A DNA stretch of 8,700 nucleotides, from the UHGV virus genome UHGV-1440302. One strand, given 5' to 3'. The translations under genes and the position numbers were made by a program. This document shows, piece by piece, positions 1 through 8,700 of the stretch (the stretch's first letter is position 1; the number at the start of each line of letters is the position of its first letter). A model generated the notes under the pieces. The model did not search any database. It worked only from the letters and a program-made list of their open reading frames with translations, and was not told the DNA's origin. Source of the stretch: a virus.

Positions 1-167
1 CATCCGGCAGTGGTGGTTCAGGTTCTGGCTCCGGTGGTTCATCCGGTAGCGGTGGCTCCGGCTCGGGCTCCGGCGGCTCATCCGGCAGTGGTGGTTCAGG
101 TTCTGGCTCCGGTGGTTCATCCGGTAGCGGCGGTTCAGGTTCAGGCTCCAGTGGCTCATCCGGCGAT
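1..167 (+). repeat. Coding tandem repeat, 39-bp unit encoding GGSSGSGGSGSGS (pIII inter-domain linker)
   Basis: About four imperfect 39-bp units (e.g. ggtggttcatccggtagcggtggctccggctcgggctcc) read in the gIII frame. Confidence 0.9.
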
Positions 168-641
168 AACAATGGCTGGCTTGATGGTGTTTTGGGCTGG
201 TTACAGCGTATTTGGGTTTCAGTGAATGATTTGAATAGTTTCTTTTCTTTTTCTCAGGCTGATGTAAATAACTCACTGAATACTTTTGATGGCCAGCTGT
301 CTGATATTGTTAAAAATGAATCGGGGGATTCATCAAATGATTATGATTCTTTAATCTCTGAGTTTATTGATAAGCTACCTAAGGAGTGGTTATTTATTGA
401 TTTTGACAAGTTGTTTTTTCCTGGTAATCAGCGTTTCGATAAGGCTCAGCCACTTGAGGTTGATTTTTCATTTTCTCTTCCGGTGATTGGGACTGTACAT
501 TTTACAGTTGATACAACCGATTTTTCATCAGCGTATGATTTGTTGTTAAGGCCTGTTCTGGAATATTTTATTTATGCACTTACTGTTCTTCGTCTTTATT
601 TTGTTTATCGCCGCGCCCTGATGCGTCATGCTGAGGTTTAG
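1..641 (+). CDS. gIII: Minor coat/adsorption protein pIII, C-terminal part (5' end beyond window start): Gly/Ser linker then C-terminal membrane-anchor domain
   Basis: Open frame (codons at positions divisible by 3) from position 3 to TAG at 639-641. Encodes GGSSGSGGSGSGS repeats, then ...DNNGWLDGVLGWLQRIWVS... and a hydrophobic C-terminal segment (LLLRPVLEYFIYALTVLRLYFVY). Same frame and repeat as the ORF running off the window end. Lies directly upstream of gVI as in Ff phages. Confidence 0.8.
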   Translation, partial: SGSGGSGSGSGGSSGSGGSGSGSGGSSGSGGSGSGSGGSSGSGGSGSGSSGSSGDNNGWLDGVLGWLQRIWVSVNDLNSFFSFSQADVNNSLNTFDGQLSDIVKNESGDSSNDYDSLISEFIDKLPKEWLFIDFDKLFFPGNQRFDKAQPLEVDFSFSLPVIGTVHFTVDTTDFSSAYDLLLRPVLEYFIYALTVLRLYFVYRRALMRHAEV

Positions 642-1006: not shown

Positions 1007-2221
<1,215 letters not shown>

Positions 2222-2373: not shown

Positions 2374-3606
<1,233 letters not shown>

Positions 3607-3662
3607 GTGCCGTCTGAGGTGGGATTATCAGGACGCGGCATCTCAATTTAGCTACTACAACG

Positions 3663-3760
3663 TCAGTGCGCATAATGTGACACGCGTTATGTTGAAAAGG
3701 CCGCTGCGATACTCTCCACCGCAGCGGCCTTTTTATACATAACGTCATTGTGCGCACTGA
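3663..3760 (+). other. Candidate XerCD-dependent attP: two inverted dif-like sites that can fold into a forked hairpin in the + ssDNA
   Basis: Site 1 (+): AGTGCGCATAA (3665-3675), 11-nt spacer TGTGACACGCG, TTATGTTGAAA (3687-3697); compare recalled E. coli dif GGTGCGCATAA-TGTATA-TTATGTTAAAT. Site 2 inverted (+ 3732-3758, read on - strand): AGTGCGCACAA-TGACG-TTATGTATAAA. Arms are mutually complementary (3665-3675 with 3748-3758, 10 of 11 pairs; 3687-3697 with 3732-3742, 9 of 11) with unequal unpaired centres, capped by a 10-bp GC stem. Confidence 0.7.
3695..3736. terminator. Bidirectional intrinsic-terminator-like hairpin (also the tip of the attP hairpin)
   Basis: Perfect 10-bp stem ggccgctgcg (3699-3708) / cgcagcggcc (3720-3729), 11-nt loop, AAAA on the 5' side and TTTTTA on the 3' side; lies about 90 bp after the gIV stop and downstream of the minus-strand gene cluster. 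Confidence 0.65.
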
Positions 3761-3763
3761 ACC

Positions 3764-3919
3764 TTAAAGGATTTCAGTGTCCTTACTTAGTTTGTTGTGT
3801 ATGGTCATCACCAACGGTGGGACAAGCGTTATCAGGCTGAATATTGTCATGCCTGTGATGCTGCCAACAACAAAATGCTTTATCAGCAGGTCAAGAATTA
3901 AGTCACTGGTTGTCTGCAT
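3764..3919 (-). CDS. Hypothetical small hydrophobic protein, 51 aa (MQTTSDLILDLLIKHFVVGSITGMTIFSLITLVPPLVMTIHNKLSKDTEIL)
   Basis: Hand-translated minus-strand ORF, below the ORF-track length cut-off; ATG at 3919-3917 immediately after repeat copy 1, stop TAA at 3766-3764; one predicted transmembrane-like segment; only a weak SD (GAAG). Confidence 0.25.
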   Translation of the reverse strand: MQTTSDLILDLLIKHFVVGSITGMTIFSLITLVPPLVMTIHNKLSKDTEIL

Positions 3920-3971
3920 ATTGCTTCTAGCAATCTTCGTATCGATAGGTAACTATAATGTTATTTTTTTG
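3918..3971. repeat. Direct repeat copy 1 (~53 bp) covering the stop codon and 3' flank of a minus-strand small ORF
   Basis: atattgcttctagcaatcttcgtatcgataggtaactataatgttatttttttg matches 4446-4502 with about 3 substitutions and 1 indel; contains palindrome TATCGATA and a TATAAT hexamer (+ strand). Confidence 0.85.
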
Positions 3972-4149
3972 TTGCATCCGTCTTTGCAAATTTCCTGTAG
4001 TCATCTTCTGTTATAGACTCCAGTCCTTTTGCGATTATCCATTCTAAAACTTTGGTATCTTTTACTGGTATTGCCAGTGTTGTTACCACTTTTACAGTTT
4101 CTTTCTCTACCTTTCTCCATAAAACATCGTTTATGTGCTTTGTTGGCAT
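3961..4149 (-). CDS. Small DNA-binding-like protein, divergent paralog of the two upstream ribbon-helix-helix-like ORFs (62 aa from ATG; 82 aa if GTG at 4209 is used)
   Basis: ATG at 4149-4147 preceded by GAGGT with 7-nt spacing; C-terminal segment VKDTKVLEWIIAKGL parallels LKPSEIVNHLIDNYL and VTWSEVVHFMIKNYL of the neighbours; ends KK-stop inside repeat copy 1. The alternative GTG start at 4209 overlaps the upstream ORF's stop by 4 nt. Confidence 0.5.
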   Translation of the reverse strand: MPTKHINDVLWRKVEKETVKVVTTLAIPVKDTKVLEWIIAKGLESITEDDYRKFAKTDATKK

Positions 4150-4205
4150 TTTTACTACCTCTGTTTGATCTTTGTCAGCCCGTCTGTTCGATGCCGGGAA
4201 AGGAA

Positions 4206-4418
4206 TCACATTGCTCTTTTTTTCTTAAGTTCTTCTCTGCTTATTAAATCTTTCACGGCCTCATCTAAGTAATTGTCTATTAAGTGATTAACTATTTCAG
4301 ATGGTTTTAGTATCTCACCGGTCTTATTGCCGATTTCTAGCACTCTTCGTTTTAGCTCCAATTTTCTGTCTTCGTTGATTCTTACAGTTGTGTCTCCGCG
4401 CTTTGTTTCTTTTTTCAT
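4206..4418 (-). CDS. Ribbon-helix-helix (CopG/Arc/MetJ-like) small DNA-binding protein, putative repressor, 70 aa
   Basis: ATG at 4418-4416 preceded by GAGGT with 8-nt spacing. TTVRINEDRKLELKRRVLEIGNKTGEILKPSEIVNHLIDNYL has the strand-helix-helix pattern of CopG/Mnt-type RHH proteins (compare recalled CopG ...LTITLSESVLENLEKMAREMGLSKSAMISVALENY). About 50% identical to ORF 4490-4672 over the helix region. Confidence 0.6.
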   Translation of the reverse strand: MKKETKRGDTTVRINEDRKLELKRRVLEIGNKTGEILKPSEIVNHLIDNYLDEAVKDLISREELKKKRAM

Positions 4419-4445
4419 CACAGTTTACCTCTATGTCCTGTCAAT

Positions 4446-4684: not shown

Positions 4685-6787
<2,103 letters not shown>

Positions 6788-7818: not shown

Positions 7819-7833
7819 TAGTTATTTAACGAC

Positions 7834-7857
7834 AGCGCCCTTCGGGGCGCTTTTTTA
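7834..7857 (+). terminator. Intrinsic (rho-independent) terminator downstream of gVIII
   Basis: Perfect 7-bp stem agcgccc (7834-7840) / gggcgct (7845-7851) with TTCG tetraloop, followed by a run of six T (7851-7856); same position as the strong post-gVIII terminator of Ff phages. Confidence 0.85.
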
Positions 7858-7877
7858 ATCATTTCAGGAGTTTTTGC

Positions 7878-8700
7878 TTGATTCGTCTTATTTTTCCGCT
7901 TCTGTTTTTGTTCTTTTCTTCGCTTTCTTTTGCTGAGGGGAAAAAAAATCCGGATGAATTTGTTGAGTGTTTTGGCCGTTTATCCTGCAGGACAGCTTAT
8001 TCAGACGCGGGGACATCGATTAAATTAGCCAGGGGAGCAGGTCATGTTTATTGTGGCTGGTCCAGTGTTGATGCATGTTCCGGAATAATTCATTATTGCG
8101 GCGACAATCCTTCAAAGGTTTCTGCCGCACCTTCTACCGTTGGGAATTTTGTTTCTGCCAAATGGCATGCATATAAAGTCTGGGATTTAGACAAGCAAGA
8201 GTGGCAAACCTGCGCCCTTGCTTTTCAGGGAGGTGAGGGTGATTTGACACCTGAATATAATAAGCCGGTTACCGAAGAAAATTGTCTTTCCCGTCCGGTA
8301 ATTAAGGACTTTTCATATTCTCTTGGTGATGTTGTCTGGGTTGATACGGGTAACGGGCAGGAATCTCAGTCCCTGGAAATTAATGGCTGTCGTTATTTGA
8401 TTGATTTTAACGAGTGTGATGACGACGGGAATTGTATCGCTCAGAGTATGCGTTCTGTTGGCGTGGCTGTCGCCAATAAAAATCCTGACGACAATACAGG
8501 GAGTGGCTCTGGTTGTGACGACGACAATTGCGATAATACGACAGGCTCTGGCGGTTCATCCGGCAGTGGTGGCTCCGGCTCGGGTTCCGGCGGCTCATCC
8601 GGCAGTGGTGGTTCAGGTTCTGGCTCCGGTGGTTCATCCGGTAGCGGTGGTTCAGGTTCTGGCTCCGGTGGTTCATCCGGTAGCGGTGGCTCCGGCTCGG
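7878..8700 (+). CDS. gIII: Minor coat/adsorption protein pIII, N-terminal part (signal peptide, Cys-rich receptor-binding domains, start of Gly/Ser linker); 3' end beyond window
   Basis: RBS AGGAG (7866-7870), TTG start at 7878 (no in-frame ATG nearby); hydrophobic signal LIRLIFPLLFLFFSSLSFA; open frame with no stop to position 8700; multiple Cys (CFGRLSC, YCGWSSVDACSGIIHYCG, CRYLIDFNECDDDGNC); enters the GGSSGSGGSGSGS repeats at about 8544. Not in the ORF track because it has no stop in the window. Confidence 0.8.
   Translation, partial: MIRLIFPLLFLFFSSLSFAEGKKNPDEFVECFGRLSCRTAYSDAGTSIKLARGAGHVYCGWSSVDACSGIIHYCGDNPSKVSAAPSTVGNFVSAKWHAYKVWDLDKQEWQTCALAFQGGEGDLTPEYNKPVTEENCLSRPVIKDFSYSLGDVVWVDTGNGQESQSLEINGCRYLIDFNECDDDGNCIAQSMRSVGVAVANKNPDDNTGSGSGCDDDNCDNTTGSGGSSGSGGSGSGSGGSSGSGGSGSGSGGSSGSGGSGSGSGGSSGSGGSGS
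8544..8700 (+). repeat. Coding tandem repeat, 39-bp unit encoding GGSSGSGGSGSGS (pIII linker), continuing beyond the window
   Basis: About four imperfect 39-bp units in the gIII frame, matching units at 1-167. Confidence 0.9.

Follow-up and report, generated by a model that had tools for sequence, protein, structure and literature searches.

The window, by which we mean the whole stretch of 8,700 nucleotides that was analysed, is one complete circular genome unit (~8.7 kb) of a filamentous phage, an inovirus. We regard it as one circular unit because the pIII-like ORF crosses its end and because related loci span that join. By Pfam and PHROGs searches with all sizeable ORFs we identified a Zot protein, a secretin, a GPA-type Rep and a minor coat protein (Table 1). 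The Rep, which falls in PHROG 91 ('nicking at origin of replication'), is ~30% identical to the Reps of the Vibrio phages fs2 and VFJ. Nowhere in the circular unit did these searches find an integrase or any other recombinase, an absence on which the reading given to this locus in the initial annotation depended. Three small leftward ORFs occupy the same position as the leftward ORFs that lie beside attL in YpfPhi (PMC4266046). A 140-nt element with two hairpins (2229-2369) is also found on plasmids, ~620 bp downstream of IncFII repA; we considered it as an ERIC repeat and rejected this, the sequence of the ERIC2 primer having no match there.

Among deposited phage genomes, a set in which YpfPhi and UPphi are absent as records, we found no match to the whole window by megablast or to a 111-nt hairpin query by blastn. 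A protein search of genome contigs with the Rep confirmed no relative, and we found no description in the literature of the phage of the window, with its GPA/fs2-like Rep. Parts of the phage match 272 of 5,426 complete E. coli genomes.

Table 1. Features of the phage genome unit and of its hairpin, with positions in the window, and the three junctions of a tandem prophage in E. coli strain 100416 (locus L002).
Feature	Position	Strand	Remarks
pIII-like gene, 5' part	7830-8700, continues at 1-638	+	circularised ORF of 503 codons, Gly/Ser linker
Zot/pI-like assembly ATPase	1010-2221	+	Pfam PF05707
pIV-like secretin	2383-3606	+	Pfam PF00263; last + strand gene before the hairpin
Whole folded attP(+) hairpin (putative)	3663-3760	+	98 bases; conserved cassette core 3666-3757
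Site 1 XerC-type arm, AGTGCGCATAA	3665-3675	+	10/11 against the E. coli dif XerC arm
Interval containing the strand-exchange point, GTGCGCATAATGT	3666-3678	+	13 nt common to phage and dif
Site 1 top-strand centre, TGTGACACGCG, 11 nt	3676-3686	+	TGT at 3676-3678 is the first 3 nt of the dif centre
Site 1 XerD-type arm, TTATGTTGAAA	3687-3697	+	9/11 against the dif XerD arm
GC clamp, 10-bp perfect stem	3699-3729	+	GGCCGCTGCG (3699-3708) pairs with CGCAGCGGCC (3720-3729)
GC-clamp loop, 11 nt	3709-3719	+	
Site 2 XerD-type arm, TTATGTATAAA	3732-3742	-	lower strand of the hairpin's XerD duplex
Site 2 bottom-strand centre, TGACG, 5 nt	3743-3747	-	
Site 2 XerC-type arm, AGTGCGCACAA	3748-3758	-	lower strand of the hairpin's XerC duplex
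Three small ORFs	3764-3919, 3961-4209, 4206-4421	-	converging on the hairpin; PHROGs of unknown function
Rolling-circle replication initiator, Phage_GPA family, fs2/VFJ-like	4766-6787	+	Pfam PF05840, 6e-49
Left junction, L002			...tttatgtt, host GGTGCGCATAA, then TGTGACACGCG TTATGTTGAAA, stem, site 2
Inter-copy junction, L002			...caacatc AGTGCGCATAA TGTGACACGCG, rest as at left junction
Right junction, L002			...caacatc, phage AGTGCGCATAA, then host TGTATA TTATGTTAAAT, giving the rebuilt dif AGTGCGCATAATGTATATTATGTTAAAT

Downstream of the secretin gene lie two inverted dif-like sites, which the initial annotation had interpreted as the two sides of a forked single-stranded attP; on re-reading, every site sequence and coordinate that it gave within 3663-3760 proved correct. 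On the - strand, running from 3758 down to 3732, site 2 reads AGTGCGCACAA-TGACG-TTATGTATAAA. The canonical dif site of E. coli K-12 is GGTGCGCATAA TGTATA TTATGTTAAAT (PMC2731167), and the arm matches listed in Table 1 hold against this published sequence. As duplex DNA the two sites have centres of 11 bp (site 1) and 5 bp (site 2), compared to 6 bp in dif, and because of this abnormal length neither is a canonical duplex Xer substrate.

When folded as ssDNA, the region 3650-3770 forms a single hairpin with a predicted dG of -40.8 kcal/mol (z = -9.8), which is retained within a 600-nt context in MFE and centroid structures alike; shuffled versions of the region average -14.9 kcal/mol, and none of 200 shuffles was as stable. 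In this fold, bases 3663-3677 pair with 3746-3760 and bases 3684-3708 with 3720-3745. The XerC-type arms are paired with one T.G wobble, and the XerD-type arms with a one-base bulge. The pairing of arm with arm proposed for the fork is thus borne out, but its wholly unpaired centres are not: TG at 3676-3677 pairs with CA at 3746-3747, and (G)CG at 3684-3686 pairs with CG(T) at 3743-3745. Because these parts of the centre pair, the predicted fork is a one-sided bulge of 6 nt (3678-3683). The hairpin of the - strand folds at -36.8 kcal/mol. A search of Rfam returned no family at the gathering threshold.

Matches to the arms are no proof of a Xer site when taken alone. At up to two mismatches, XerC-arm-like 11-mers number 6 (2.3 expected) and XerD-arm-like 11-mers number 3 (3.1 expected), so single 11-mers of this sort are not rare and we dropped the arm matches as evidence. 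Chance is instead excluded by the paired inverted arrangement, together with the junction sequences and the conservation of the structure in ~50 loci.

The junctions were read in E. coli strain 100416, where two tandem copies of the phage are located between hipA and ydeQRS-type fimbrial genes. As the initial annotation had anticipated for prophages of this element, their ends are hybrid dif sites: the left junction reads G-GTGCGCATAATGT-GACACGCG and the right junction reads A-GTGCGCATAATGT-ATATTATGTTAAAT. The first base of the arm (G in the host, A in the phage) and the bases from position 4 of the centre onward segregate oppositely, so the exchange occurred within 3666-3678. The crossover therefore falls on the XerC side of site 1, where XerC is expected to cleave at 3675/3676, the nick itself not being resolvable from sequence. 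The whole hairpin region is kept at the left end of the prophage, and a regenerated dif stands at its right end.

The same outcome is seen in other loci. A rebuilt dif is present at the right junction in L001 and L005 as well as L002, and in 6 IMG/VR contigs. Canonical dif sites were found in 9 loci (9 sites), all 9 of them downstream on the same strand and none on the opposite strand. Tandem copies occur in L001, L002, L005, L034, L038 and L057. The order of sites is identical in all the arrays examined, and the 8 nt upstream of every inter-copy site 1 are the same as the 8 nt upstream of the terminal dif. No prophage in the opposite orientation, with site 2 junctions, was seen in ~50 loci. 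We found no integration away from dif with unrelated junctions either. One copy that is not at dif (L056) was examined as a candidate for alternative integration and rejected as a rearrangement remnant, being a truncated fragment that extends from Rep to a partial zot; it has no annotated secretin gene, matches the window over only ~4 kb (47%), and abuts an IS110-family gene and a truncated dinG. The phage thus integrates at dif by a crossover on the XerC side within the 13-nt interval, regenerates dif, and forms tandem arrays. This integrase-less filamentous phage of E. coli almost certainly inserts there through the host's XerC and XerD. With a stable hairpin, no integrase in the genome unit and no unrelated junctions elsewhere, the proposal in the initial annotation that the element exploits XerCD and targets an enterobacterial dif is supported on all three counts.

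We searched for related hairpins with a pattern in which the arms of site 1 were fixed and the spacer between them was free at 9-13 nt. It matched 10 genome loci and 40 IMG/VR contigs, and the genome loci include Y. pestis, Lelliottia, Phytobacter, two Erwinia, Rosenbergiella and Kluyvera. Three matches were discarded: L006 and L013, which are chance matches that have no hairpin, and L050, in which the cassette is truncated inside the GC stem. The GC clamp and an inverted site 2 are present in all the real matches, and both arms of site 2 are kept in 32 of 32 distinct cassettes; the invariance of the top-strand arms is uninformative because the pattern fixed them. Across the 32 cassettes, 96.4% of pair cells are standard, as compared to 26-58% when the partners are slid. 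The centres range from 9 to 11 nt in site 1 and from 5 to 6 nt in site 2. TGT at the start of the site 1 centre is invariant in the 32 distinct cassettes, although the pattern left it free, and the middle of this centre is hypervariable; no other part of the cassette varies as much, which is what an unpaired bulge should show. Most cassettes have a bottom centre that reads CGTCA on the + strand; in Rosenbergiella it reads TGTCA, with a compensating CA for CG in the top centre (pair 21/79). Because conservation of the cassette is so strong, covariation counts for little, both sides being changed in only 2 of 36 pairs, each in one sequence.

The cassette starts and stops where the hairpin has its base, exactly at the outer XerC-type arms. 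In all informative loci, site 1 is carried by the main coding strand, which in the Inoviridae is the strand that is packaged. The + strand folds better than the - strand in 32 of 32 cassettes, by a mean of 2.35 kcal/mol, with few independent positions underlying this asymmetry. Non-Watson-Crick positions on the + strand are G.T at 9 pair positions and A.C at 2.

The cassette occurs in very different phages. In ~35 otherwise unrelated inovirus loci, window 3666-3757 is the only sequence shared with this phage, and cassettes are found with three unrelated Rep families (GPA, gene II/X and Rep_trans) in several genera. Cassettes of the window's form, which we call type A, accompany GPA, Rep_trans and II/X Reps; those of type B accompany II/X, Rep_trans and other Reps; and one locus (L047) has an A/B hybrid. 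In L005, a phage with a Rep_trans-type Rep, the cassette and that of the window are 97% identical, down to the loop that otherwise varies, and the flanks are unrelated. Some arrays are heterologous–for example, in L016 the end of the upstream phage is unlike the phage's own end–and decayed halves of cassettes are present on IncF/ColV-type plasmids. At the nucleotide level the stem of the GC clamp is near-invariant across cassettes and the loop is variable, an invariance that could reflect a very recent spread or a sequence-specific reader. We suggest tentatively, at somewhat under even odds, that the attP cassette (~92-96 nt) is a self-contained unit that is exchanged horizontally, with a clamp that some factor of the host or the phage may recognise by its sequence and that may do more than stabilise the hairpin or terminate transcription. 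What is new here is that a ~92-nt cassette is the sole DNA common to many unrelated inoviruses of Enterobacterales.

The GC stem plausibly has a second role as a bidirectional terminator, as the initial annotation had suggested, and this role would be compatible with one in attP. The stem is flanked by AAAA and TTTTT, forming with these A/T flanks an inverted repeat of 14 nt that is 100% complementary, and the genes on either side of it converge (with ends at 3606 for the secretin gene and at 3764 for the leftward ORF). RNA folds of -29.3 kcal/mol (+ strand) and -30.1 kcal/mol (- strand) are predicted, followed by U-runs that correspond to 5 T (+ strand) and 4 T (- strand); the - strand run also belongs to the XerD arm. 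The T-run of the + strand is interrupted (TCTTTAG) in cassettes of type B. A consensus terminator scan made no call, which is uninformative because the 11-nt loop exceeds the scan's stated limit of 3-8 nt.

The closest mechanistic parallel is with CTXphi. In CTXphi, attP1 (AGTGCGTATTA TGTGGCGCGGCA TTATGTTGAGG) has a 12-nt centre and attP2 a 7-nt centre (PMC3089051). The two sites pair in the (+) ssDNA, and XerC alone exchanges one pair of strands, so that integration leaves one functional dif together with non-functional attP1 and attP2 (PMC3089051, PMC5357621). For integration to occur, the XerC exchange has to be stabilised by base pairing (PMC3089051), and the invariant TGT that we see here, which is how the dif centre starts, fits this rule. 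Like the CTXphi attP(+), the hairpin belongs to a phage with no recombinase of its own and consists of two inverted dif-like sites that are predicted to pair in (+) ssDNA. One centre is long (top strand; 12 nt in CTXphi, 11 nt here) and the other short (7 nt versus 5 nt), the top centre begins with TGT as the centre of the target dif does, and the XerD arm contains TTATGTTGA in both (the CTXphi attP1 arm is TTATGTTGAGG). In both, dif is regenerated at one junction, the full attP region lies at the other end, and tandem arrays form (PMC3089051); in the CTXphi-type class, new phage genomes arise from such arrays. The differences are in size (~98 nt with 34 nt between the sites here, versus ~150 nt with ~90 nt), in the apex, formed here by a perfect GC clamp of 10 bp whose A/T flanks are terminator-like, in the arms, which fit the enterobacterial dif (GCGCATAA) and not the Vibrio dif (GCGTATTA), and in the Rep, which is of GPA/fs2 type here and of RstA (Rep_trans) type in CTXphi. 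The hairpin has every sequence-level hallmark of the CTXphi attP class. We also considered the TLCphi-type class, which is defined by a degenerate XerD arm, XerD-first exchange and XafT, and rejected it on the basis of the 9/11 XerD arm and the crossover on the XerC side; in addition, no family match among the small ORFs suggests an XafT, though this is a weak point.

YpfPhi of Yersinia pestis and CUS-1 of E. coli O18:K1:H7 are listed as CTX-type elements; they are inoviruses of ~8.7 kb, arranged in tandem at dif, for which inverted XerC/XerD sites have been reported (PMC4266046, PMC4246890, PMC3089051). The phage of the window is likewise an enterobacterial inovirus of ~8.7 kb found in tandem at dif. 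We take the Y. pestis locus L009 to be YpfPhi. It has the same cassette, 84% identical over window 3666-3757; the arms of site 1, the GC stem and the CGTCA bottom centre do not differ. The variants differ in the top centre (TGTGACACGCG here, TGTACGACTCG in L009), the loop, and the arms of site 2 (TTTATACATAA and TTGTGCGCAC here, CTTTAGCATAA and TTGTGCGAAC in L009). Outside the cassette L009 has no nucleotide similarity to the window, and its Rep is of gene-II/X type versus GPA type here. We therefore rejected membership of the window's phage in the YpfPhi/CUS-1 group: only 3666-3757 matches L009, and the Rep families differ. The hairpin and the attP of YpfPhi are members of one cassette family, in different phages. 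An E. coli ST131 prophage (L003) has a Rep 100% identical to that of L009 and is therefore a CUS-1/YpfPhi-type phage. New copies of YpfPhi reportedly prefer to insert between those already resident, a preference not foreseen by the classical model (PMC4266046), and this counts against a CTX-type reading.

A further set of inoviruses integrated in tandem at dif is the UPphi901 group of E. coli, Salmonella, Klebsiella, Citrobacter and Yersinia (PMC7307601). The paper that described it (Shapiro and Putonti 2020) speaks of 'a copy of the dif site' and uses the words 'hairpin' and 'attP' 0 times (PMC7307601). This group is a different phage lineage from the window. Several IMG/VR contigs of ~7.5 kb that have a YpfPhi-like gene II carry a type-B cassette.

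We conclude, with a probability of roughly 0.8, that a CTXphi-type IMEX (integrative mobile element exploiting Xer) has its attachment site at 3663-3760. In the mechanism that we propose, the inverted dif-like sites would anneal in the packaged (+) strand, with the 10-bp GC clamp as nucleus, to give a XerC arm and a XerD arm, each of them duplex, around a mismatched centre in which 11 nt face 5 nt. The folded site would be bound by the host's XerC and XerD and brought into synapsis with the chromosomal dif, and XerC would swap one pair of strands at the border between arm and centre (3675/3676). The TGT in common with the dif centre would stabilise this exchange, and the rest of the centre, being unlike that of dif, would block exchange by XerD. 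The resulting pseudo-Holliday junction would be resolved by replication, leaving the hairpin region, now duplex and inert, at the left end of the prophage and a regenerated dif at the right end, where further copies could be accepted to build tandem arrays. XerC would probably be the only catalyst of the exchange, with replicative resolution, and integration is expected to be irreversible.

That the substrate is (+) ssDNA is an interpretation that the junctions do not dictate, because they would be identical if site 1 recombined with dif as duplex DNA on its own. It is favoured by the retention of site 2, the non-canonical centres, the invariant TGT, the position on the coding strand, the better folding of the + strand, and the cassette boundaries. 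[quoted passage not shown] VGJphi-type phages (VGJphi, VEJphi, fs2 and relatives) resemble this one in host XerC-mediated integration at dif with no phage integrase; fs2, whose Rep is the most similar to that of the window, is among the VGJ-type relatives (PMC4246890), and the stem with its A/T flanks does look like a terminator. The VGJ type, however, has one duplex attP of ~29 bp with a 7-bp centre, is excisable and leaves a prophage flanked by two usable sites (PMC5357621, PMC3089051), whereas the present hairpin has two inverted sites, whose centres are 11 and 5 nt long, and the site 1 centre of 9-11 bp is out of line with the 7 bp of VGJ-type attP (PMC3089051). Membership in that class is ruled against by the two inverted sites and the 11-bp centre at the left junction. 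Furthermore, a terminator needs no Xer-like arms at 20-45 nt from its stem, yet they are kept in 32 of 32 cassettes, all of which also favour the + strand fold, and the cassette ends exactly at the outer XerC-type arms. We therefore consider a VGJphi-type route to be unlikely.

The folded site could also be presented by extrusion of a cruciform from the supercoiled duplex replicative form, instead of by free (+) ssDNA. A near-perfect palindrome of 98 nt with a strong GC nucleus would suit such a process, and the - strand also folds well (-36.8 kcal/mol). Extruded - strand hairpins, however, would yield prophages in the opposite orientation, of which the ~50 loci contain none; the 11-nt loop and bulged centre probably make extrusion costly; and the asymmetry of + over - folding points to the packaged strand. 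Extrusion is in our view quite improbable. In Ff phages, the minus-strand origins and the packaging signals are ssDNA hairpins in intergenic regions. The structure at 3663-3760 might be chiefly a complementary (minus) strand origin or a packaging signal, with the dif-like arms secondary, and the unexpected invariance of the GC stem sequence would be in line with this. Against this idea, the crossover maps within the structure, the two-hairpin element at 2229-2369 is a better candidate for a minus-strand origin, and the cassette is common to phages with three unrelated Rep families, so we regard a primary role in replication or packaging as very improbable indeed.

The mechanism is already known from CTXphi and has been proposed for YpfPhi and CUS-1, and the hairpin is not new in kind; our finding leaves the understanding of the mechanism unchanged. 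It extends the CTXphi paradigm, the integration of ssDNA by means of hijacked XerCD, to another lineage of inoviruses that is fairly common in E. coli. The signature GTGCGCATAA-N9-11-TTATGTTGAAA-GC clamp-inverted site finds such prophages and sets their borders exactly, a point on which automated tools currently err, as do publications that describe 'a copy of dif'. The hairpin also offers an E. coli-native substrate of ~100 nt for the biochemistry of ssDNA Xer recombination. Finally, one compact cassette appears to serve many unrelated filamentous phages of Enterobacterales.

Copies of the phage and of its attP hairpin cassette are not always complete. At L056 (4992-10290), a non-dif locus from NZ_AP043633.1, we found a truncated phage copy extending from Rep to a partial zot, with no secretin gene annotated in it. 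This copy is immediately downstream of an IS110-family gene for an 'RNA-guided transposase', and it adjoins a truncated dinG. The same kind of truncated, non-dif copy was found again in O166:H15 and other strains. At another locus, L050, the cassette (4419 to ~4470) breaks off partway through the GC clamp, in its 5' half, and a canonical dif site is present 1.5 kb downstream; here a prophage at dif has decayed to a remnant.

Parts of the cassette are also found on plasmids. Plasmid NZ_CP062858.1 carries, at ~3995-4070 of locus L004, the right half of a cassette of type B (as distinct from type A, the form in the window). This half keeps some of the XerD arm of site 1, together with the GC clamp and site 2; it is equivalent to window positions 3688-3757, with 84% identity. 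Right half-cassettes are present on many large E. coli plasmids (484 plasmid places matched), and in the one plasmid examined the neighbors are an IS200C fragment and an STM4504-family gene. [quoted passage not shown] A type-B cassette is also present on a contig of a metagenome-assembled genome assigned to 'Candidatus Nanosynbacter' (JARKOR010000214.1). Its host flank is E. coli-like (TTTATGTT), and the contig has a YpfPhi-like gene II (86% identity). The contig probably comes from an enterobacterium and was mis-binned into the Saccharibacteria assembly.

Outside the cassette, three further features of the phage genome were delimited.

Positions of additional features in the phage genome
Feature	Window coordinates	Location	Details
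Element of ~140 nt with two hairpins	2229-2369	Between zot and the secretin gene	ssDNA fold
Inverted repeat TGTTAACAGTTTAACA / TGTTAACCTGTTAACA	4687-4754		Arms of 16 nt, 94% complementary, with 36 nt between them
Long Gly/Ser-rich repeat linker (GSGGSSGSGGSGSGSGG...)	8400-8700 and 1-300	pIII-like gene	

Both hairpins of the first element are predicted to be strong in single-stranded DNA (z = -5.9). The element has 98% identity to a stretch of 2.7-kb RepL plasmids of E. albertii, and more than 400 plasmids contain sequence ~81% identical to it; comparison with the ERIC2 primer sequence gave no match. Its counterpart in a Salmonella IncFII/FIB plasmid, the only one examined, is located ~620 bp downstream of repA, where R1/R100-type plasmids have a primase-dependent single-strand initiation 'G site'. 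Because of this position, the element may be the phage's complementary-strand origin. The inverted repeat is found a short distance upstream of where Rep starts (4766); it may be an operator or an origin element belonging to the leftward/rightward control region. Among E. coli copies, the Gly/Ser-rich linker shows the highest variability in the phage, and coverage of the window has gaps at 271-1001 and 8299-8544. Such variability has also been reported for g3p of the UPphi phages (PMC7307601).

Different phages also meet at dif. Locus L016 contains a heterologous array there (141 and 8385), in which another phage's end (…GCAATATG A) stands in front of the cassette, while the phage that carries the cassette has …TTACCATT G as its own end. 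In strain E300010, both GPA-type and Rep_trans-type replication genes fall within the matched region. A hybrid cassette occurs in IMGVR_UViG_2700989204_000003 (~5612, - strand): its top centre (TGTACGACTCG) and XerC-2 arm are of type B, and its XerD-2 arm (TTTTTACACATAA) is of type A. This mixture of types suggests recombination inside the cassette, and heterologous dif arrays could be a place where cassettes and modules are exchanged.
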